From: Rhizaria sp. SCN 62-66
Lineage: Eukaryota
Assembly: GCA_001724265.1 (NCBI GenBank)
Contig: MEDY01000016.1
Location: forward strand, 62,001-126,000
DNA length: 64,000 bases
Reading direction: 5' to 3'
Positions 15,591-48,725 of this stretch are shown in pieces; position 1 is the first letter of the stretch; the number at the start of each line of letters is the position of its first letter. The notes below the pieces were generated by a model that worked only from the letters and a program-made list of their open reading frames with translations, was not told the DNA's origin and ran no database searches. The position numbers were made by a program, and so were the translations under genes.

Positions 15591-16879
15591 TCACGCACTC
15601 ATCCCAACGGCAGCAGCGGGCGCGGGCAGCGGGTAGTCACGCGGCAGCAGCTCCTTCGTCCCCATCGCGTCCGCGCCGCCCGCCGCCTCAAGCAGCGCCT
15701 CGGCCTCGGCGAATCCCACCTAGGCCAAATCGAACAGCTCCGCGGCCCGCGCCAGCACGGCGCGCTCAAACACGCACTCGGCGGGGGCCGCGGCACGTGT
15801 GACCACGCCCGCGGCGGCCGCGGCCAGCGCGGCGGCCGACTGGGGCGCGTCGGCGCGCGCATCCAGCGCAGTTTTGCTGAGGAAAGTCGTCATGTCGCAG
15901 AGGAAGTCGCTGTGCGAGCGCGCGCCGCGGTACGCGGGGCGCTTGGCGGGCAGCGTGAGGTACTGCGCCATGGGCTCCGTCGCCAGCCGCCACAGGAACG
16001 AAGTGTGCTGTGTCGGAGTGTACAAATGTCAAAACAGGAACGTGTGAAAGATGATACAGTTGTGAGCATATCGATGGTATGAATGATTTTCAAAGCAAAA
16101 CTTCAAAGAAACACGTGAAAATATTCGTGGTATATCATTTGTCAAATTCAGAAGATTTTTAAATATTTTAATTCTGCATCAGAACGTACGTGCACCCAGC
16201 GCTCGCGAATGATGGACTGCGCGTTGCCGCCCACCTTCTTCTCGCCCATGCAGTAGTCGTTTTCTTTGAGGTTGAAAGAGCGCAGCAGCTCGGCGGAGGC
16301 ATCGTCAAGTGCGAAGTCCTTAGCGAGAGACTCGAACGCAGGCCTACAGTGCAGTTTAGGTCCGTGCCGACAAGGGTGTGTAAGAGTGAGAGCGCGAGTC
16401 AAAGTCACGGAATGCATTGTTTAGTCTCGACATACAGGGATATAAAAGCAAAGTAAGAGCAAATAACAATACAAATCGCAACAAAATGCACAAATACATC
16501 GGTTTTGTTTCACTTATACGTACTTGTAGATGAGTTCGGTGAACTTCATGATGTCGTGCGGGTACGGCTTGACGTCCGGCAGCGCCGTCTTGTTCATGAT
16601 CAGCGACGTGAACTTCACGTTGTCGTCCACGAACACCGTGCCGCCGCCGGTAAAGCGCTTGATAAGCGGGATTTCGTCGTTTTCGGCGTTGTCGACGTTG
16701 ACTAGCTCGCGCGGCTTGCCCGAGATGCCGAGGATGACTGCGCGATGGTGCGGCAGAGAGCGGTTGAAGCACAGGAAGTTGCGCTTCGCGGGGTCGTGCC
16801 GCAGGAGGGTCTCTTCGATGTACAGCATGCGCTTGGCGTCCACGCGCGGCATGCGCAGGATGTGAAGCGTGGGGCGCAT
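15591..16879 (-). CDS. Lipoate-protein ligase A-like (BPL/LPL family), 3 exons (16879-16524, 16343-16190, 16007-15591), with in-frame TAG at 15720-15722
   Basis: Motifs IKRFTGGGTVFVD, ENDYCMGEKKVGGNAQSI and WVHHTSFLW. GC-rich coding-like sequence continues 42 codons past the TAG to a TGA at 15591-15593. The family call is firm; the 3' end depends on TAG decoding. Confidence 0.85.
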
Positions 16880-33812: not shown

Positions 33813-36800
33813 ATGTCCCAGGGCTACGCGTTTGCGGCTGCGCCGCAGGCCGTCGCGGGCAGTGCTCACACACAGGTCGGACGTTACCGCGCCTCCAAGG
33901 GTGCCAACGGTGCCGCCAACAACAACACTGGCGCCTTCGCCAAGGACAAGACGATGGCTTCTAACCTTATGCACGACAAGCGCATTGTCCGCGGCAGCAC
34001 ATTTGCGCTCGCGAACCGCATCGCCGCCCGCGCCACCCCCGGCATGCCCGGCGCGACTGGCCCTTACCACGCACAGCAACAGCAGCAGCAGCTCGCCGCG
34101 ACCCGCCGCGCACCCTCTGCCTCGGCGGCCCCCGCTGCCGGTGGCGCGTACTACTACGACGCGCTTGCGCGCGCGTCGACGCCCCCCGCGGTGGAGGGCC
34201 GCGTGCACACCGAGGTGCAGACGGACAACTACCTTGAGGACCTCCGCGAGGCGCACAACAAGGTTGAGTTCGGCACGCAGACTCTGCCGGAGCTCGACCG
34301 GCCGTCGGCGCCGCTGTTCAAGCCGTTGGAGCCGATCTTCTACCCTCTGTCCGAGGCTAAGTCGATCGCGCTGATGACTGACGCGGCGGAGCTGTTCGAC
34401 TTCGACCTCACCGTGGAGCCGCTGCTGGCGGCGCTGTGCGATCGCGGCATCGAGGACGCGATGATGGACGTGCTCGAGGAGGAAGAGCAGAAGGAGATGC
34501 GCAAGGGTGCGCTGGCGTTCCAGCAGCAGCACGCCGCCGCCGTCGAGGTGATGCACGCCAAGGAGCACCGCGAAACGCGCCTGGCAGCGGAGACCGAGGC
34601 GCGCATCGTGCAGGAGAAGGCCTACCTGGCCGACAAGCAGGCCGCGGCCTCGCAGCAGGCCGCGCGCACGGCGGCGCGCGACGCGCTGCGCATTGTGGCC
34701 GAGTCCGCGCTCGCGCGGCTCGATAACGCTGGCTACTTCTATGACCCCGTGGCCCGGCAGGCCGTGGTCGAGTTTCTGCCTGCGCTCGTGGACCAGGTTC
34801 AACGCCGCGCCGACCGCGTCGCCGCCGTGGCCGCCGAGACGGAGAAGATGGTGCTGGCCGCCGTGCAACAGGCCGTTGTTGCGCAGAGCCGCGCGCGCGC
34901 CGCCCTTGTCAAGGAGGCTGTCGACGAGGCTGAGAGGTTCACCAAGTACGTCATCACAACGACTCAGATAAGCTCTATCTTTAATGCTCATGAATGAGGA
35001 GCGGCTTTGTAGCATAGCATGCACCTTTAATTTTTTCTCTCTTTCATTTTCTTGCCTTCATATTCGCTCATAATATCTTTGTTATTATATCCATATCTTG
35101 TTTTTCTATTGCATAGGGAGAGCGCCGAGCGCCTCCAGGCCCCCGGCACTGTGGCCGGCGCCCGCTCCACGGCAGTCGGCGCCGACAACAGCGGCGACAG
35201 CTTAAGCCCCGCCGACGCCCCCGCCGCCGACGCTTCCAGCGCTCCTGCCGCGACTGGCGCTGCCGCTGACGGCACGGCGACGATCATGGACGCCGCGTCG
35301 GCGGCCGCCGCCGTGCCGGTGCCCAAGGTCGACGGCGTGCGCGCGCGCCAGCAGCCCAGCTTCGTGGCGCTCGCCGCCGCCGCCGCGCTCGCCTCGACCG
35401 CGGCCTCGTCCTCGTCCTCGTCCTCTTCGTCCTCGCTCTACGGCGGCGGCCCGGGCGCCGGCACCGTGGACGGCAGCGACGGCTCGTTCAACCCGCAGGT
35501 GGGCGTCCTCGGTGGCGGCGGCACGGGCCCCTACTCGTCGCGCCCGTCAACCAGCAACACGATCTCGGTGAGTGCGGCCGCCGCGCGCAGCGGCGTGGCC
35601 CACATCCCCCCTGTACCCAGCAACGCGGCCGCGTACGACCGCCGGCCTCGCGCTGCGGCCACAGCCACGCCCGCGGCGCTCATGCGCGATGCGCAGCGCA
35701 CCGCCATGCGCACTACGGGCCCTGTCACGACCCCCGCGTCCGTTCAGCAGCAGGAGCAGCAGGTGCAGCAGGATCAGCAGCGCATGCGGGCGGGCGGCGG
35801 CGGCGGCGGTCCCGGCGACGACGACGGCAGCGACGACGACGACAACGACGACAAGAGGGGCAAGGAGGCTGCTGCTGGTGGCAACGATGACGACGACGAC
35901 GCTGCTGGCAAGAAGAAGAGCGGCAAGCAGAGCAAGGACGGCGACGACGCCGAGGACGACGCTGAGAACGCTGACATCAAGGCCCTCGAGGCTGCCGCTG
36001 GCCTCACCGAGCCCTCCGTTCCCGCTGACGGCGACGCTCAAGACGACGGATTGTCCGTCGTGAGCGCCGAGCACGTCGACCCCGGACTGAACCTGCTGCG
36101 TTCCACGGTCCGCACACTGGGCTTCACGCCGATGTGGGCCGTCACCGAGTCTGACGACGCGGCCCCGCAGCAGCAGGACGGCGCCATCTACACACCCGGC
36201 TACCCGGGCCACGCCGGCGTCCTCGTCGGCGGCGGCAGCGACGAAGACATTGCGATCCTTGCTGACAGCTTCCTTCCGCAGCACCCGCGCCTGTCGCCCT
36301 CGGACGCGGGCTTTATCCCCGCACTCGCGCAGTCCATCTCCACCACTGCGTGGGCCGCCATCGACACCACGGCGGGCAAGCTCTCGCTCCCGCTCTTCGC
36401 GCCCTCGCTCCACGCCGGGCTCGCGCTGGGTGACACCGTCACCCACGTCGACGGCGCCGCCGTGCGCGACCCCGTGGCATTCCGCGCCGCGCTTCACGCG
36501 CGCCTGCCGGGCGACGCCGTGCGCCTTACCGTGCTGCGCGGCGCCGACGGCAGCGAGGAGACGGTCACGGTGGAGGTTGCCGCGGCCTCGCGCAAGCTGC
36601 CGCAGGCCGAGGTCCGTCGTCAACGCGCGCGCCTCGAGCTGCCCCCGTTCCCCACCGCGCTGCTCGCGCGGCCTGAGGAGGCGCTGGCGCAGCTCGCGCG
36701 CGTCCCGCGCACGCTCGGCTTCACCGTCTGCGAGAGCGAGGACCACAGCGTGGCCGCCGCGCCGGGCGCTGTTGCGGCGCTCGCTGCCGCCGCGGCCGCT

Positions 36801-39800
36801 GCGCCGGCGGTCTCGGCTGCGACCAACGTCTGCGACGCCACGCCGCTGACCGCTGCGGCCGTGGCGAGCCAGTCCGCGGGCGCCGTGGGCGGGCTCGGGC
36901 TGTTCGACGCGCACTCGGCCGCGCCGGGCGCCTCCGGGCGCGCGCCGCTAGTAGCGGCCGCGCAGGCCGCCGTGGCGGCCAACGGCAGCGGCGGCATCGT
37001 CGTGCAGACGGCCTCCGAGGCTTCGGGGCTGCAGCCGGGCGACGTCATCCTTGCCGTCAACGGCGACCCGCTGCTCGCGGCGAGCCCCGCGGCGCTGCTC
37101 GAGGCCCTCGCATACGCGCACGCGCCAGCGGCGGGCGACGCGGCCGCGGGTCAGGCCACCGCCGTGTCGGCTCAGGCTCCGTACATGCTGCTGCCCGGCG
37201 AGAGCATCGCCGTCGAGGTGATGCGTTTCCCCGCCTCCGCGAACGCGCTGCCGCAGGCGATGATGGTGCAGGCCGTCGCGGCCACTATGGGCGGTGGCGC
37301 GGGCGCTGCGCCGGCCGCGCGCTCGGTGTCGAGCGACATCACCGTGCTCACGGTCAACGTGCTCGCCGTGCCCGCGGCCGGCGTTGTCGCTAAGGACGAC
37401 AACACTGTTGGTCTTGAGTGGGTCGACGCGCGCCGCTATATGGCCGGCCGTTCACTGCCTGTCGCGCGCGTCGGCGTCCAACTGGACGCCAGCGCTGCTA
37501 CTGGCAGGAAGTCCTCTGCCGCCGCCGGTGCTTCCAAGTCCGGCAACAAGAGCGACGGCAGCGCGGGCGCTGATGTCGCCGCCGCCGCCGCCGCCGCCGC
37601 CACCGCTGACAGTGCCAGCAGCAGTGGCTCGCCCGGGGAGGCCGCGGCGCTCCTCAAGCTCAAGGCGGCTGGCGCGTCGCTCGGCTTTGCTGCGGCGGCG
37701 CTCAGCGGCCCCGATGGCGGCCGCGAGGTTGCCCGCATGATCGAGGCCGCGCAGCTCCACCGCGCCGTGGCTGAGTACGGCGCGTCCGACGCCGCTGCAC
37801 CGGCCAACGATGCCGTTGCGCTGTTCAGCGACGGCGGCGCGGCGACGTCAGGCGTGCTTGTCTCGTTCGTCGAGCCTTTCGGTTCCGCGGCCCAGGCCTC
37901 GCTGCAGACCGGCGACCTCGTCACGCACCTTAACGAGGCCCCCGTGGAGTCCCCCGACGCGCTGGCTCGCTTCCTGCGCTCCGGCTGTGTTGCCGGCGAC
38001 ACGGTGCACGTCACCGCGGTGCGTGCGCTGGACGGCCGCGTGCAGGAGCTCTACCTCGAGGCCGCACCGATCGCACCCCTCGCGCAGAAGGACGTCCGCG
38101 CGCTCCGCAAGACCGCCGGGCTGCCCGTGGCCGAGACTGCGTGGTACAACGGCGCCGCGGCCGCGCAGACGCTCGCCGCGCTTGCGCCCACACTTGGTGC
38201 CGAGCTCGCTACCGTCGGCAACCCTGAGGAGGAGCAGGAGCAAGGCGACTCTGTCGTGGTCGTCGACAGTGTCTTCGCGCCCACCGCGACCGCGTCTGGC
38301 CTCCGCTCTGGCGACGTTGTCGTCAAGCTCGGCTCGTACCGCCTGCGATCGGCTGACGAGCTGCAGACCATCGTCGCCAGTAAGCGCCCCGGTGACGGCC
38401 TGCTACTCACAGTTTCGCGTTCCGCTGGGGATGGCCAGGAGGAGGTGACTGTGTCGCTCACTCTGGCCGGTCTCCTCGACGTCGCTGCGTTCCCGTCCGC
38501 CGCACTCGCCGCCGCCGCTGCTGCCGCGCCCGTGCTGCCCGTGACGCGCGCGATGCAGACGTCTGCCGTCGTCGCGCGCGCGTTCAGCCTCGGCTCTGGC
38601 CTTCGCGCCGCGCCCGAGGGCGGGGCCATCGTCGACGCAGAAGCCGTGCTGTCGCTGCGCCGCATGACCGTGGCGGCCGCCGCCGAGGCGCGCCGCAACA
38701 ACGCGGCCGCGAACGGCAACGACGACTGGTGCGCGCTCGCCGACGACGGCGACGACGCCGCCGCGGTGCCCACCGTTGCCGCGCTGGAGCAGCTGCTGTC
38801 GTCGCCCGAGACCGCCGCGCTGTCGGCCGCCGACCGCGCCGCGGCCGTGCTGGCGCGTCTGCCGCGCTCGCTGGGCGTCACCACGCGCCGCTGCAGCGAG
38901 GGCCTGGCTGTCGTCGCGCTGTCGGCCACGTCTCCTGCCTGCGCCGCGGGTATCGTCGCGGGCGACGTCATCACGCACTTGCACGACGCGCGTGTGTCGT
39001 CGTCCGCCGCGCTCGCTGACGCGCTGCAGGCACAGCATGAGCTCGGCGACGTCGTCACTCTGCGCGTGCTGCGCAACGCCGACGCGCGCCCCGAGGTCAT
39101 CACCGTGCAGCTGGGCACGCTCCCCGGTGCGCTGGCGGAAGCCTTCCCACTCGCGCGCATCCAGGAGCTGCGCGAGACTGCAGGCATGCCCCCCGCGCTG
39201 CACGCGCCGCCCGCTCTGCGCTCCGCCACCGACGCGGAGGTTGAGCTGCACGCGCTCGTGCCCTCGGTTGGCGTCAAGCTCGCCACGCGCGCTAGCGGCG
39301 GCGTCACGATCGAGCGCCTCAAGCCTCAGGGCCCCGCTGACCTCGCGGGTCTGCGCGATGGCGACGTCATCATTGGCGTCGGCAAGACGCTTCTTCTGGT
39401 TGGTGGCGAGGCCGCGAGCGAGACGTTCCGCGCTGAGATCAAGCAGACGCTGCCGGGTGATTTCGTCGCGTTGCTGGTGCTCACTGCGGCCGCGGCGGAG
39501 GAGATCCTCTCGAGCGCGGGCGACCAGGTCGACACAGCCACCGCTGCCGCCGTCGCCGCCACCGCGCGCGCCGTGTACCTCGAGGTCAGCTGTGGCCTGC
39601 CCGGCGCCGCGCTGTCGCTGGACGCCGTGCGCGCGCTGCGCCTCACCGCGGGGCTCCCCGTCGGCGTCCACGCCAAGCGCGAGGCCGTGCGTCGCACTCT
39701 CGCCGACGCGTGCGAGATGCCCGCGAACAAGGCCGAGGTGTTCGCCTCGGTGGCGGGCTTCGGCGCCGTGCTCACGAGCGACTCGTGGCTACCGCGCGAC

Positions 39801-41939
39801 GCGGACGGTGCGGCGACTGCCATCAACTTCGTTATCGCTGCGCTGCCCGTCAGCATCGGCGCCTCGCTGGTTCCTGTCACGCTGACTCCCGACGCGGCCG
39901 ACGCCGGCGCCACTGCTCCCGTGACGGGTCTGCAGGTCATCCTCATCTCGCCCTTTGGCGGCGCGGCGCAGGCCGAGCTCACTGAGGGCGACGTCATCGT
40001 CGCGGTCAACGGCATCACCACGCACACGCTCAGCCAGCTCAACAGCGCCATCCGTGACGCGCGTGCGGGCGACAACGTCGCGGTCACGGTGCGCAAGGCT
40101 GCTGGCGGCGATCTGGTTGCCGACGTGCCGGTGGAGGTCTGCGTGGACACCAACGCCCTCTTCGACACTGTCGCGGGCGGGTTCCCGTTGCCTTACTCGA
40201 CGGGCGACGACTCGCTCCGTGGCCTCGCCGAGTCCAACGGTTCGCGCCGTCCTTCCGGCCCTGGCTCCGCCGCGGCCGCTTCGAACAGCGCTGCAGGCCT
40301 GAGCGAGGGCGAGTTCTCTGCCGTTCTTTCGACGCCGCCGCAGAGCATTGTGCGTGGCCTGCTGTCGCTGCTGCCCGGGTACGACGAGGACGCGACGCGC
40401 GCGCTGTTGACGCCGGAGCACGCACGCGCTACGCTCAGCGCGCTCAGCGCCACTGTCGACATGAGTGTCACCGTCGCCACCACCAAGCTCCCCGCTGACG
40501 ACCCTGCTGCGTACGACGACGAGGCCGCTGCCGAGGCGGCGGAGCGCGAGGTCGACGTGCTCGTTGTCGACGGCGTCGAGCCTGACTCCGTCGCCGCTGC
40601 GGCTGGCGTACAGGTCGGCGACCTCCTCCTTGCGGTCAACGGCGTCGAGTTCATCTCCAACCCTGACGGCGAGAACAGCAGCGGTGAGAAGCCCTCCATG
40701 TCGGACGAGCTCTCCGCGCTGCTGCACAACATGACTCCCGGCGACCCGCTCGTGATCGAGGTGCAGCGCAACGACTCCGGTGAGCGCGTCGTGCTCTCCG
40801 TCCCCACGGCCGGCGCCGACAACAACGGCACGCCTGTCGCTGCCTCCACGGTCCTCGCGCTGCGCCGCATCGCCGGCTTCGCGGAGCACCAGCTCGCGCT
40901 CTCCGCTTCCCAGGCCGACACCTCCGACGCCGCCACTGCGGAGGGCGAGCTCGACGCCGAGGCCCGCTCCCGCGCCATCGCGCTGTTGTCGCGCCTCTCG
41001 CTCGACGCGCCCCTGATCTCCGACGCCGGCGTGCCCCTCGTCGACCTCGACGCGCTCGCCGCGCAGCCCTACGCCGCGGCCCGCGCCGCGCCGCCGACGG
41101 ACGCCGCCCGCGCGCTGGCCCTGATTGACCGTCTGCGGCCCGATCTCGGCATGACCGTGTCCCAGGTCGACGGCCTTGCACACTCGGCGATGTCGGCGTT
41201 CCCCGCGACCTCCGGCGCGCTTGTCAAGGTCACGTCGACGCACCGCGCCGGGTCCGCCGCCGCGGCCACCGTCGTCCCCGGCGACCTCATCAGCATGATC
41301 TCCGGCCGCGTGATCGAGAGCGTGGCCGACTACCGCGCCGCCGTCGCCTCGCTCACCCCCGGCGTCGTAGTCGAGGTCGAGGTCCGCCGCGGCGCCGACG
41401 GCCGTGTCGAGCACCTGCACCTCGAGCCCGGCTGCACGCAGCCCGCCGCGTTCCCGCTCGCTCGCATCCGCGAGCTCCGCGCGGCGGCGCGCCTCCCCGT
41501 GGTCACCACTCCGCTGCTCGACGCTGCGGCCGCGCGCGAGGCCGTCAAGGCGCTTAAGGTGCGCCTCGGCATGAACGTCGCCCTGCGCGCCACGGCCGAC
41601 GGCGGCGCTAGTGTCGTGGTGAACAAAGTGTTCCCCATGTCAAACGCGGCCGCCATCGGCATGCAGCCCGGCTTCGCGCTGCTGTCCGTCATCTCAGCCG
41701 CTGCTGACGGCAGCATCGTCGAGACTCACCTGCGGTCTGAGCACCACCTGTTCGCGATGCTTAACGCCTACGCGCCCGGAGACATGCTCTCGATGCGTGT
41801 GCAGACCAACACGACGGCCGCTGCCAGTGAGGCGGGTCAGCGGGTTGTTAAGCTGGAGCTTGAGGCTCTCAACGTCTCACGCGAGTACGTGCGCTCGATC
41901 CGCTTTATCGCTGGTCTCTCCGCCGACGACCGCGCGTAA
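33813..41939 (+). CDS. Radial spoke protein 3 domain fused to ~10 PDZ-like repeats, 2 exons (33813-34945, 35117-41939), 2651 aa
   Basis: RSP3 motifs NLMHDKRIVRGSTFA, TPPAVEGRVHTEVQTDNYLE and ELFDFDLTVEPLL. A GTACGT...ATAG phase-2 intron joins in frame to the 35052-41939 ORF, which has repeated GLxxGDxIxxVNG motifs. Stop TAA. Confidence 0.8.
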
Positions 41940-42381: not shown

Positions 42382-44550
42382 TCACATCTGCCAGAACAGC
42401 ACCTGTCCGTCCGCAGTGCCACCAACGACGAGGTCGCCGGCGAGCGACATGGTGACGTCCTGGACGGCGACGCCGGCGTCGGGCGTCTGGAGCTCGCCCA
42501 CAGTCATCCAGCGCTGCTCCTCGGGGTCGACGCCGAGGATCTCGACGCGACCGTTGTCGAGCGCAACCACGGCGCTCTCCCCAGAAGGGTCGAAGCGGAT
42601 CGCGTTGACGGCCGCGGAGAGCTTCGTCTGGAAGATCTCCGTGCCCGTGGCTAGGTCCCAGACCTTAAACGCGCCGTCGGCGTCACCGGAGGCGAGGTAG
42701 CGGCCTGACAGCGAGGCGTCGAGCGCCTGGACGGCGTTGTAGTGACCGACGAGCGTCTGCGTGCACAGCCCGGAGCGCGCATCCCAGAGCGAGAGCGTCT
42801 TGTCGCCAGACGCCGTGGCGAAGACGGGCGAGAACGGCAGCCAGCGGCACTTGTTGACGCTGTCGACGTGGCCGCGGAAGACGGAGAGCTGCGCACCGGT
42901 GGCGGCGTCCCAGAGGCGCGCTGTGTGGTCCATCGATGCCGTGAGGATCGAGAGCCCGGCCGAGTGGAAACGCACGTCCCAAAGCGGCTGCGTGTGGCCC
43001 GAGAGCTTAACGGCGCACTGCTGCTCGCCGAGGTTCCAGATCTTGGCCACCTTGTCCACGCCAGCGGTCGCCAGCAGCGTCGCCGATGACGGGTGGAAGT
43101 CGCACGACGACAGCCAATCCGAGTGCCCTTCGCCGACCATGACGAGGTCGCCGCGCGGCAGCGCCCAGACCTTCCAGGCCTCATCGTCGCCCGCGGTCGC
43201 GAGCACCGGCGCCACGGGTGACAGCGCGACGGCCGACACGGGCAGGTTGTGCGCTTTGTACGAGTGCGTCAACGTCGCCGCCTGCAGCGGGGCGCGCGCG
43301 GCTGGGGAGGCAACGTACGGATTCGCCGCCACGGGGACGAAGCGCGCGTTGGACGAGCCCGCCGCCTCCTTCAGCGTGCCGGCCTTGCCGCCGTGCGTCG
43401 CGCCCGACAGAGTGCTGCCATGCGCGCCGCCGCTGGTGCCGTCGAACGCGCCCTTGGTCTTAGCCAGCGAGGACTTGGTGGCCTCGAGCGCGGTCGACGC
43501 ACCCGCCGCACCGCCGGAGCCGGAGCCGGAGCCCGCCTCGGGGTTGCCACCCAGAGCGGCGATCTGCTGCTGCAGCTTCGTCTTCTCCATCTTGAGCAGC
43601 ATGCGGTCCTTAACGGCGCCCTCGTACTTCTTCTGCAGCGTCGCTAGCACGGGGGCGTACTCGTCGACGTGCTTCTTGAGCCGCGCGAGGTCCGCGACCA
43701 GGGCCTCTTTCTCGGCCACGAGCCGGCGGTGGTGCATCTTGTGCGCGTCGCGCTCCTTCTTGAACTGCAGCCACGTGCCCTTAGCGGCGTCGGCGGCGGC
43801 GGTCGCGGCCGCGGTCGTCTCGCGCAGCGTGGCGACCTCGCCGAGCAGCGCCTGGTACTGCGCATACACAGTTGGCGCGGCGACGGAGCCGGCGGAGCTA
43901 GCGGCGTCTTTGTGGCCGTAGAGCTGGAACCACTCGGTCTGGAAGGCGTCGAGCGAGCGCTGCATGCCATGGGAGACGAGAAAGTTACGCACAAAGTCTT
44001 CGACGGCGAGCTGCTCGGGGTTGGGGTCGAAACCGCTGGTGGTGTTGTTGGCAGTTGCGAGAGCGGGAGCTGCAGAGGCGGTTGCCGACGCGGGAGCGCC
44101 CGGGGCACCGGCAGACGCGACAGGGCGACTGGGACCACTCACAGGCTATATATGGAGAAAAAAAGATCACATAAAAGCACATTAGTTGATGATGAGTGAT
44201 AATGAGTTTTGATGGAGGCTTGCTTTGGGGGCAATCAGGAGATAGAGAGGAGAGTGCGAGAACGAACCTTGCCGGACTGGATGGCATTGAAGACAGAGGC
44301 GAAGTCGTCAATGTCGTCGTCATCGAGCGTGGGGGCCTACAGAAATTGACAGGGACATGGCGCAATATATTAAAGTAGCGGTGAGTACGAGAGCGGGTTG
44401 AGAGCAGAGTTGCATTTTGTGACACATGGTGAGGGGCGAGAAGTAGAGAGAGCAGAGAGCGAGGAGGAAACGTACGTTGTCCAGGGTGACAAGGTCATCA
44501 TCACCACCTTCAATGTGGACCTGATCGAGCACGTACGTGGCTTCAGCCAT
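42382..44550 (-). CDS. SPAG16: Flagellar central-apparatus WD40 protein PF20/SPAG16, 3 exons (44550-44476, 44336-44268, 44145-42382)
   Basis: VEDFVRNFLVSHGMQRSLDAFQTEW and KKERDAHKMHHRRLVAEK coiled coil, followed by seven WD40 repeats. Stop TGA. Confidence 0.9.
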
Positions 44551-45397
44551 GACGCAAGACTCGACTGTCTGGGGGCAGCGAGAGACGAGAAGACAGACAG
44601 AGGAAACAGCCGTTACATAGGAAAAACAGAAACACGCAGGTGAGAGCTATAAGTGCATTTTCTAAGACTGCCATTGAAAACCTGGAATAAAAACAACGCG
44701 GAAAATGTCAAAAAGATAGAAGCAAACAAAGATTACGATCATGTCGACCACAAGCTCGACCTCGAATATACCCCCAGTCGACCTGAGCTGACTGAGAGCG
44801 AGCTGAGACTGTGAGCGCGCTGGCCAACGCACCGGCAAGTGCAGGGCCAAAATGTGATTTGTGGTGGGTGGCTCCCCATCTTTAGACGGATGGACCCCCC
44901 TCAAAGTCGGTCTCGTGCCTGTCGACGGATTTGCTGGAGGCCGTGAACGTGTATCGGCACTGTGGATGATTTATTTCGCGAGAAGACACAGTTCACTGCT
45001 CGGTTCAAACGTTCTCTTCCCGCGTGAAGTTTTGTGCGAGGAGTTAATCCTTGCCGAATGTTGGCAGTGTGTCAAACGACTACGCACAGGATAAGTTTCT
45101 TCCGCCTATTTCTTCATGTGTGTATATCAGATATTGGCATTTTAGGGCCTTTATTGAGTAGGGGAATTGACAACATATTTGACTTTGCTTATGTTATTTG
45201 TGTCTCACGTATATTTGTCCTGCACTATCCTACTTCTATGTTCCTTCCCCTCTGCGTTCGCTCGTTTTGATTGATTTAAATAGCCTGAGGGCTCTCGCGC
45301 TCCCTCGCAGGCTCTCGAAATCATGTCCACCGCGTGCACGTGTCAGCTTTACGCATCCCACCACGTTCACGCCGCGGATTGCTTCATTTCTCAGGCT

Positions 45398-46283
45398 ATG
45401 GCCTACGCCCAACACCAACACCAACATCAGCAACACGCGCCTCAGCCTATGTATGCTTCATCTATCACTTCAGTCAACCACCACCAGGCTGCATACATCG
45501 CCCCACAGCCTGCCGCTCCGCCCCCGCAGCACATGCAGTACTACCAACATCCCCACGCCCACCAACACCAGCATCCACACGCGCACGTGCCTATGCACGG
45601 ACAATATCAGGTCCCCGTCGGCGTTCACCCGCCCCAGGGCGTCGCCGTGCCTGTCGGCGCGCTCGGCAGCGTTGTGCCCGGCGTTCTCGGCGTGCCGGGC
45701 GCGGCCAACGCCAGCTCGCCTTCTGCGCTGTACGCCGCGCTCCAGGCGCAGCAGGACCACCTGAACCACCTGCTGCAGTACCACCAGGCCCGCAAGCGCG
45801 CGCTCCAGCTCGCGCAGCTCGCGCACACCAATAACGCCCCCGCCCCCGCGACCAACGGCACCGTCAGCACGCCCTCGAGCTCCCAGGGCGGCACCCCGCC
45901 GCAGCAGTACCAGCAGCACCAGCAGCAGCACCAGCAGCAGCAGATGGGCGACGCGCCCTTCGCGCCCACGGCCATGATGCAGTCGCTGTCCCTCGGAGAC
46001 CCGCATTCGGGCGCGTACACCGGCGGCGCCGCCTACAACGGCGCCGGCGCCGCGGCCGCCGCGGGCGGGGCGATGACCGCCGCGGAGCAAGAGGCGCTGC
46101 AGCTGCAGCACCTGCAGCAGCAGCTTCTGCATTCGCAGCAGCAGCTCGCAGCGTTCCAGGCCCAGCAGCAGCAGCAGCAGCAGCAGCGACAGGGCACGCC
46201 GCCGTCGCAGCCGTCGTCGACGCAGTCGTCGCCGCTTCAGCAGCACCAGCAACAAGCTGCGGGCGACCCGGCCAAGCACGCGC

Positions 46284-46370
<87 letters not shown>

Positions 46371-47608
46371 CGCAGCAGCAGCAACAAGCGCAGGCGCAGG
46401 CGCAGCAGCAGGCGCAACAGCAGCAGCAGAAGCGTGGCCAGATGCAGCACATCACGATCACCCCTCCGGCCAACGCTGCCGTGACCGCGATTGCGGCCGG
46501 TGTGCCTGCGACGCCCCCCGGCATGCCCCACCCTCAGCCCTATCCCCAGCAGCAGCAGCAGCAGTGCCAGCAGCAGCAGCAGCAGCAGCAGCAGCCGCCG
46601 CAGCCGCAAGTGACTGTGGCTGGCGGCGGCGGCGTGGCCGGCCTGCGTCCGCGCGCGTCTGCGTCTGCGGACGCGATGCCGTCGCAGCTCATGTCGACCA
46701 TCATCGACGCGGCGGCGCGGTGGGAGATCCTGGTCGACGAGCCGTCGCTGGGAACTGGCCACTTCGCGCAGGTCCGCCGTTGCCGCCACCTCGTCACGGG
46801 GGAGCTGTACGCCATCAAGATCATCGACAAGAAGGACCTGGCGCAGTCGTGGCCCGTGGTGCAGGCCGAGATCGACATCCTGCTCCACGTCGGCCAGCAC
46901 CACAACATCGTCGGGCTCGTCGACACCTTTATGGACGGCAAGTACTTCTACCTCGTCATGGAGCTCTGCCGCGGCGGCGACCTCTTCTCCCGCATCATGA
47001 AGATCGGCAAGTACACTGAGCGCGACGCCGCGCGCGCGTGCCGGCAGCTGGCTCAGGCGCTATAGCACATCCACAAGTGCGGCGTCACACACCGCGACCT
47101 CAAGCCCGAGAATATCCTCCTCGTCGACGAGTCGCCCGACTCGCAGATCAAGGTCGCCGACTTCGGGCTCTCGAAGCTGATGCCGCAGGCGTCTGACCAC
47201 GTGATGCGGACTGTGTGCGGCACGTGGGCCTACTGCGCGCCCGAAGTGATCAACCACCAGCCCTACACGTCGGCCGTCGACAACTGGACGCTGGGCGTGC
47301 TCATGTACATCCTCGTCTCCGGCTACCACCCGTTCGACCCGTACGGCAACGCGCCCGAGCCCGTGCTGCTGCGCGCCATCCTCGACTGCAAGTATGACTT
47401 CTGCGACCCAGTGTGGAACGAGATCTCGCCGGAGGCGCGCGAGCTCATCTCGTCGCTGCTGCGCGTGCGGCCCGAGGAGCGGCTCTCGCTCGAGACCGTC
47501 CTGCAGTCGCCTTGGATCCAGGGCAACGCCAGCGAGCGCGAGATGCACCACCTGCTGCCACGTCTTTCGTCGCTCCAGTACATCAAGCAGCGGCAGCAGC
47601 AGGCGTAA
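45398..47608 (+). CDS. CAMK-group Ser/Thr protein kinase with Q/H-rich N-terminus (736 aa if TAG is read), in-frame TAG at 47063-47065
   Basis: LGTGHFAQV, YAIK and LVMELCRGGDLF precede the TAG. HRDLKPEN, DFGLSK, CGTWAYCAPE, DNWTLG and PEERL follow it in the same frame. Stop TAA. Confidence 0.9.
46289..46369 (+). repeat. Pure (CAG)27 coding trinucleotide repeat (polyglutamine)
   Basis: Counted directly. Further interrupted CAG runs flank it in the kinase N-terminus. Confidence 0.95.
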
Positions 47609-48725
47609 CGGAGCGCGCGGATGTTCCCGCCGCGACGCTCGCCACTACCCCCGCCATACTCGTGCGCTCGCGTCACACGTACCTCGACGCACACACGTCC
47701 GTACGCACCCCTCTGTACACTCACTTCTGATTCACCGATGTGCACGCCCAGGCGCGCTGCCCCGCCGCACGCACCCTCTCGTGGACGCCCATTCGTTCCC
47801 TACACACATAACTTAACACACAACTCTCCCGTACCACACGACAACACCGCACAACCACACGCATTCGTTCCCCTTAACTTACTTATCGGCCTCTTCTTTG
47901 CTTGTGTAGCCGGATCCATTTCACCCTGGGTTACATCGGTGTGATCTCTGTTCACTGTGATGAAACTCAGCAGGTGTTGTCTTTATATCCGCGAATAACA
48001 AGCATCAAAGGCGTTGCCACATCAAAGCTACAATTTTACTTTTATTTTTGCATTGTTTACACGGGTTCGCTCACACCCGCGCTGGACAGTGTATCACGTA
48101 CAAAATTCACTTTCACGAACGCTATCACAAACGCGCTCTTGCTGCTGTTACGCAGTCACTCACTCCCATGCGTGCCCTTTGACGCCCACCCCCGCGCACG
48201 CACCGATTCTTGGACTTTGTTTTCGCTCGCTCGCGCCGGTCTCCCGATATGTGCACCACACATGTTCTGTCGACACCAGGCTCGCGGTCGCCCAACAACA
48301 CCGATCCAACATGAGCGGTCTTTACGTTTGCGGGTGTTTCACGTGAGTTTGACAAGTGCTGCGTTTCGTACTCGTTGAGTTTTGTTTCTCAGCTCTTTCT
48401 GTGTTTTTTTTTTCATTAAAAATATTCTCCTTTTGTCTCTTGTTTCAGGCTATGACATATGATCCTTGTAATTCAGTCTCAGTTCAGAAATGCCTGTTAA
48501 TCCGTGCGCGCCGTTGGGCGCGCGTGCTCGATTCGCACATTTCGTGGTCACGATTCCGAAAAATCCAAACCATATCCCCACCCCTCCCCACTGCGTGTTT
48601 ATTTGATTACAATCGTCATTTTTGTCTTGTCCAAAACACATCGTATTGTCTCACTTTTCTTGTACTAGTCTAGATCTATCACAAGCAGTATAGAACAACC
48701 TCCGTAAAAATAATTCCATCATAGT

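Follow-up and report, generated by a model that had tools for sequence, protein, structure and literature searches.

The closest described systems are two nuclear genetic codes in which only UAG has been reassigned. In the rhizarian exLh, where UAG encodes leucine, 384 UAG codons were reported in 71 genes (5.4 per gene), and gene ends are UAA (56) or UGA (15) (Panek et al. 2017, PMC5304391). In Iotanema spirale UAG encodes glutamine; the same source gives 204 UAG codons in 126 genes (1.6 per gene), with 104 UAA and 15 UGA at gene ends (PMC5304391). The criterion given there for a UAG-only reassignment combines in-frame UAG in conserved genes with gene ends that use only UAA and UGA (Panek et al. 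2017, PMC5304391). Codes in which both UAR codons specify glutamine are named in that source for ciliates and hexamitin diplomonads (PMC5304391), and for the N-domain of eRF1 it names the motifs GTS, NIKS and YxCxxxF. A different system is described for the filamentous ascomycetes Fusarium and Neurospora, in which A-to-I editing of UAG to UGG restores genes with a premature stop, one of them a kinase gene (PMC10776026, PMC11156358).

When the literature was searched by title and abstract, no nuclear stop-codon reassignment was found in a stramenopile or in a wastewater eukaryote. To our knowledge, every UAG reassignment described so far is a mature one in which genes contain UAG frequently, and how a stop codon at first drops out of termination and comes back into coding has been argued from theory.

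The window (the whole stretch of 64 kb that was analysed) is a eukaryotic contig whose exons have a GC3 of about 0.85-0.95 and whose introns and spacers are AT-rich. The introns are about 130-300 nt long and start at the 5' end with GTACGT, GTACAT or GTTCGT. Two flagellar genes (RSP3 and SPAG16) and a cycloartenol-synthase-like cyclase are encoded in it. The best named matches of SPAG16 and of the kinase described below are from stramenopiles, at about 37-43 % identity (37-40 % for SPAG16 alone). When a SPAG16 tree was drawn, the window protein and its 75 %-identical relative stood by themselves on a branch of length 2.57, leaving the lineage unplaced. The SPAG16 of the host organism was found on 1 + 6 contigs in a search of protein sets, and the kinase stretch is present in bioreactor, wastewater and sludge metagenome runs from 12 studies dated 2015-2025.

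Directly after RSP3 and on the same strand, one open frame of 2,302 codons (35031-41939, +) encodes a giant protein with at least seven PDZ domains. ARAGORN called a 92-nt tRNA-Asp (GTC) antisense within this PDZ gene, at 38692-38783 (-). Rfam returned zero matches in the window, including at this position, and the call is probably a false one in GC-rich coding DNA. Within the 64 kb no tRNA with the anticodon CUA was reported by ARAGORN, and no eRF1 gene was found.

The gene that drew attention to the window encodes a CaMK-like Ser/Thr kinase and extends from the first in-frame ATG at 45323 to a TAA ending at 47608 (+); no intron was found in it. It lies in an open frame at 45275-47608 (+) that gives 777 residues when the in-frame TAG is read as X. 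This TAG, at 47063-47065 (+), stands in the context GCG CTA TAG CAC and occupies one column of helix E. The frame around it reads CRQLAQAL, then the TAG, then HIHKCGVTHRDLKPEN, and continues for 180 open codons to the real terminator, TAA at 47606-47608 (+), which places the C-terminus within one residue of that of the closest known protein (P0003). The catalytic domain covers 46739-47518 (+), residues 489-748 of the frame, and its HRD, DFG and APE motifs are all located 3' of the TAG.

The initial annotation had placed the TAG inside the kinase domain, and the sequence together with a full-profile match to Pfam Pkinase confirmed this. When the X-read frame was aligned to PF00069, a check that the annotation had proposed, profile positions 4-263 of 263 were matched in a single stretch (E-value 2.5e-71) and the TAG took up one column. 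With the VAIK-type lysine (AIKII), HRDLKPEN, DFG and APE all present, the catalytic domain is complete. The annotation's statement that the 180 codons after the TAG keep HRD, DFG and APE in GC-rich usage and without a frameshift was likewise correct, since the Pfam match is one stretch and GC3 is 0.92 in each of the two blocks of 50 codons that flank the TAG on its 5' and 3' sides.

Among solved structures the best relatives are CaMK1D, CaMK1 and CaMK4 (E-values of about 1e-65; 1.6e-65 for CaMK1D), and the CaMK1D structures align to the kinase gap-free, with a tyrosine opposite the X. These enzymes share with the window kinase the full catalytic domain with HRDLKPEN, DFG and APE. The window kinase differs from them in its long Q/H-rich N-terminal region, and no calmodulin-binding tail was identified in it. 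The N-terminal half is rich in Q, H and A and of low complexity. At 45900-46640 (+) it contains long CAG/CAA (poly-Gln) and His/Ala-rich tracts, and the contigs of all runs break there. CTA, the leucine codon just before the TAG, is seldom used and accounts for 28 of 1,063 Leu codons (2.6 %). Both in-frame TAGs of the window (See below for the second) lie within 6-bp palindromes, CTATAG at 47060-47065 (+) and CCTAGG at 15719-15724, which could be due to chance or could be a mutational trace (a tandem change from CTGCAG; C-to-T at CAG).

The kinase subfamily is known only from unnamed metagenome proteins with 52-80 % identity. The closest of them, P0003 (80 % identical), is encoded on a 32-kb metagenome contig that also carries the 75 %-identical SPAG16. 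As SPAG16 and the kinase are found together on one contig of a relative with 75-80 % identity, the neighbourhood 42382-47608 is conserved (syntenic). The alignment to the 13 closest kinase relatives is gap-free at the TAG site, and the residues in the TAG column are Q, Q, K, L, Q, V, V, Q, V, V, K, V and V. This bears out the view, taken in the initial annotation, that the helix E position is variable (V 6, Q 4, K 2, L 1); glutamine is present in both of the closest two.

Identity to P0003 was 102/127 (80.3 %) before the TAG and 143/180 (79.4 %) after it. At 79 post-TAG columns 12 or all 13 of the relatives agree; the window deviates at none of these columns, and the relatives themselves deviate at 0-5 each. 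Compared with these 13 proteins, the kinase has no frameshift, no second stop and no sign of decay 3' of the TAG. A pseudogene, named in the annotation as a possible refutation, would have to be a very young one. An uninterrupted version of the kinase with more than 80 % identity was not found among 5.8 billion proteins, a set in which the neighbouring SPAG16 of the organism is represented. A scan of metagenome contigs for orthologue DNA suitable for dN/dS was dominated by generic HRDLKPE matches, with a best locus of 45 % identity that was unusable, and a scan of genome contigs with P0003 gave no matches.

Contigs from other sequencing runs were compared at the same site. The contig of run X3 (2017, another study; 1,286 nt) covers 46636-47863 and that of run X4 (2025, another study; 824 nt) covers 46767-47590; both carry the TAG and show 0 differences from the window in these intervals. 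Over the 3.4 kb compared, X4 differs from the window at two positions, both non-coding (45174 and 48005). These comparisons use assembled contigs at a depth of about 5-6, and since contigs drop rare variants a minor allele may be hidden. Nevertheless, the presence of the same letters in contigs of two other studies excludes an assembly error for the TAG at 47063, which answers the concern about sequencing error raised in the annotation. It should be noted that the sampled strains are near-identical. For this reason the retention of the TAG across samples speaks for fixation and not for selection.

In the case of RNA, polyA-RNA contigs of run X7 flank the TAG (46716-46991 and 47350-47672) and none spans 47063. 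A 93-nt contig of run X5, which is probably a DNA run, matches 47057-47122 exactly, including the TAG, although on one side of the TAG the match is just 6 letters long. The other 27 letters of this contig disagree with the window 5' of 47057 and may come from a chimera, an adapter or the junction of a variant.

Splicing was considered as a way to remove the kinase TAG and was rejected. The upstream GTs at 47011 and 47038 are present as the annotation had said, and the candidate introns that they define (55 and 28 nt) are not multiples of three and would break the frame. In addition, the relatives align across the site without a gap.

The second in-frame TAG lies in an unrelated gene on the opposite strand, which encodes an LplA-like lipoate/octanoyl ligase (15591-16879, -). 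Three exons were recognised at about 16879-16524, 16343-16190 and 16007-15591 (-), and both introns have the form GTACGT...AG. Pfam LplA-B_cat matches exon 1 (E-value 2.1e-13) and exon 2, and the relatives read WVHHTSFLW across the joint of exons 2 and 3. The TAG, at 15720-15722 (-), stands in the last exon in the context TTG GCC TAG GTG, 42 codons before the TGA at 15591-15593. When HMMER was run with the last exon, the 50 %-identical protein P0124 aligned to query residues 17-135, across the X at residue 100, and eight more distant relatives aligned to query residues 108-119. The 42-residue tail after the TAG, used alone, matched the collinear C-terminus of P0124 (E-value 3e-5), and the ends of the two proteins are no more than about 3 residues apart. 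In 11 relatives the residues in the TAG column are V, E, H, E, D, E, E, P, E, R and P, with no glutamine among them.

The ligase open reading frame that ends at the TAG under the standard code was found on one JGI contig and five Logan/ENA contigs (three sources), and no uninterrupted near-identical ligase was found in the assemblies searched. Splicing out of this TAG was also rejected, as the sole upstream GT would remove 16 nt, break the frame and destroy the homology. In public protein sets the ligase is represented only by a fragment of 101 residues, which begins within the last intron and stops at the TAG. It owes its form to prokaryote-style gene calling, applied here to a eukaryotic contig.

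All six frames of the 64 kb were then scanned for stops flanked on each side by 40 stop-free codons with GC3 >0.8 and GC1 > GC2. Two sites qualified, and both are TAG (47063, + and 15720, -); no TAA or TGA qualified. A scan based on codon-usage log-odds gave the same two TAGs as its only strong matches, and a scan with shorter flanks produced nothing credible beyond them. Nine long open reading frames with 7,997 codons in total contain zero in-frame stops. The density is thus 2 in-frame TAGs per about 12,000-13,000 codons, or about 1 per 6,000. Recoding was also considered at four other TAGs that join or end frames (at about 12574, 25417, 30428 and 60818, in the genes for EF-G, LepA/GUF1, GCV_T and oxidosqualene cyclase (OSC)) and was rejected, all four being located in AT-rich introns. 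They probably account for the weaker sites implied by the phrase "strongest single site" that the annotation had used for 47063.

Terminators were called for 16 genes: TAA in 9, TGA in 7 and TAG in none. Six of these calls are backed by the ends of domains or homologues (kinase, EF-G, LepA, GCV_T, SPAG16 and OSC) and ten were inferred from a steep drop of GC3 immediately 3' of the stop. RSP3 and the BMT5-like gene, whose ends are unclear, were excluded. If a TAG share of 20 % is assumed, simple arithmetic gives a probability of about 0.03 for seeing no TAG among 16. This share is a general figure, and the use of TAG at gene ends varies widely among eukaryotes, so that 0 of 16 is only moderate evidence. 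With the codon usage of the window, 1,880 codons are one step from TAG and 434 are one step from TAA, which makes TAG by far the likeliest nonsense product in these GC3-rich genes, and the fact that both in-frame stops are TAG does not discriminate between the readings. As regards sequence context, the base after the terminator is a purine at 14 of the 16 gene ends, the exceptions being PIG-M (T) and the kinase (C), and the base after the in-frame TAG is C in the kinase and G in the ligase.

Both TAGs are thus present in independent assemblies, each occupies one alignment column, and the conservation of the flanking sequence is equal before and after it. We propose that UAG does not act as a terminator in this organism and is instead a rare sense codon, probably for glutamine, as in Iotanema and, for the kind of reassignment, exLh, at a far lower density; our confidence in this reading is about even. 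It was ranked first because in-frame UAG occurs in unrelated conserved genes while only UAA and UGA were seen at gene ends. What held our confidence at that level is the small number of sites (two) and of called gene ends (16), a codon usage in which nonsense changes are expected to yield TAG, the simplicity of a CAG-to-TAG transition, the near-identity of the strains and the fact that no RNA contig spans either TAG. The initial annotation had concluded that the kinase TAG is translated. This stands as the best-supported reading in view of the second TAG, the 16 gene ends and the missing decay, while translation itself, the amino acid and the mechanism are what we infer.

Under this reading, UAA and UGA alone would end translation, UAG would be a sparsely used sense codon, read most likely as glutamine, and both the kinase and the lipoate ligase would be ordinary full-length proteins. 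If Iotanema and the rhizarian exLh are taken as a guide, UAG may be read by a tRNA whose anticodon is CUA, derived from tRNA-Gln(CUG), together with an eRF1 whose recognition of UAG is weakened. The low TAG density would reflect an early stage, at which UAG has gone from gene ends and is only beginning to return within genes, one route being a C-to-T change at a CAG codon.

As far as the published descriptions go, the locus resembles Iotanema and exLh in having in-frame UAG at conserved positions and gene ends without TAG. Glutamine, as in Iotanema, fits the better-resolved site, that of the kinase. Taken over the two sites only, the column residues of the relatives include glutamine in 4 of 13 kinases and 0 of 11 ligases. 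Unlike those two systems, the window has about 0.1 in-frame UAG per gene, a value more than 10 times lower, and the lineage is different. The UAR codes, which occur in further lineages beyond ciliates and hexamitin diplomonads, share with the present proposal the reading of UAG as glutamine through tRNA-Gln(CUA), one base away from tRNA-Gln(CUG). In them, however, UAA is reassigned as well; in the window TAA never occurs in frame and ends more genes than any other codon (9 of 16). With the edited fungal genes, as these are described, both genes have in common a single in-frame UAG and the look of a pseudogene in an otherwise conserved sequence; editing there restores an ancestral tryptophan, whereas here no relative has tryptophan at either column and neither TAG is in a hairpin loop.

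The alternative that survives best keeps the standard code and takes the two TAGs as young null or truncating alleles, fixed in a near-clonal and widespread lineage and too young to have gathered other damage. We regard it as a serious possibility, though less likely than not. A recent CAG-to-TAG change, which is a plain transition, would have killed the kinase, and a second change would have cut 42 residues off a ligase that may still be working. One-step routes to TAG dominate this codon usage, and since the samples differ at only 2 places in 3.4 kb a recent sweep is plausible. The ligase TAG falls within the C-terminal 13 % of the protein, a part in which truncation may often be tolerated, and gene callers using the standard code end the ORF there. 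The low count of 2 TAGs in the codons surveyed also favours this alternative, and taken alone the kinase data fit a very young nonsense allele equally well.

It is less comfortable with the two genes taken together. Two such alleles among about 20 genes in 64 kb would seem many for a free-living genome, and neither gene has a second lesion. The part of the kinase after the TAG is as conserved as in intact relatives, from which the age of the TAG is estimated at less than about 2 % neutral divergence, and no intact allele or paralogue of either gene was found in any assembly searched. The lack of TAG at 16 gene ends would moreover have to be left to chance. Two unrelated conserved genes with an in-frame TAG at alignable columns, against zero in-frame TAA or TGA, point instead to sense UAG, in what is a small sample.

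Site-specific recoding within an otherwise standard code, either by programmed readthrough or by mRNA editing that removes the stop (A-to-I, UAG to UGG), appears improbable to us. It agrees with the observation that both genes are intact apart from the TAG, and the 100 nt 3' of the kinase TAG fold somewhat better than shuffled sequences (z -2.74; 4 of 200 shuffles as good). However, no structure was found at the ligase site (z +0.94), and TAG CAC ATC and TAG GTG GGA have no signal in common. Neither is of the CARYYA type, CARYYA after UAG being the readthrough motif known from tobacco mosaic virus. Editing to UGG would insert tryptophan, which none of the 13 kinase relatives and none of the 11 ligase relatives has in the TAG column, and would thus not be restorative; the hairpin loop is missing at both sites, and the host has the flagellar genes RSP3 and SPAG16 and is no ascomycete. 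Recoding at single sites would also leave the lack of TAG terminators unexplained. Finally, an error of sequencing or assembly, or the choice by the assembler of a minor or heterozygous variant, is very improbable indeed as the source of the TAG, for while contigs do drop rare variants and the depth was low, the X3 and X4 contigs cross the kinase site unbroken, the ligase frame ends at its TAG on six contigs from three sources, and no CAG version of the kinase exists among the 5.8 billion proteins.

If the two TAGs were merely null alleles, the finding would be an ordinary one. If UAG is a sense codon here, it would add a new lineage to those with this known type of code change, and one observed unusually early in the process. 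Standard-code annotation of the host organism already truncates its proteins, as the public ligase fragment illustrates. Tentatively, and with a little less confidence than we give to sense UAG as such, we suggest that this unplaced, widespread and uncultured wastewater flagellate is at an early "capture" stage, with UAG out of termination and just entering sense use, in a lineage in which no variant nuclear code was known. Such an organism, lacking UAG at gene ends and carrying only about one in-frame UAG per 6,000 codons, would represent a natural intermediate in which codon capture could be tested against models with an ambiguous intermediate.
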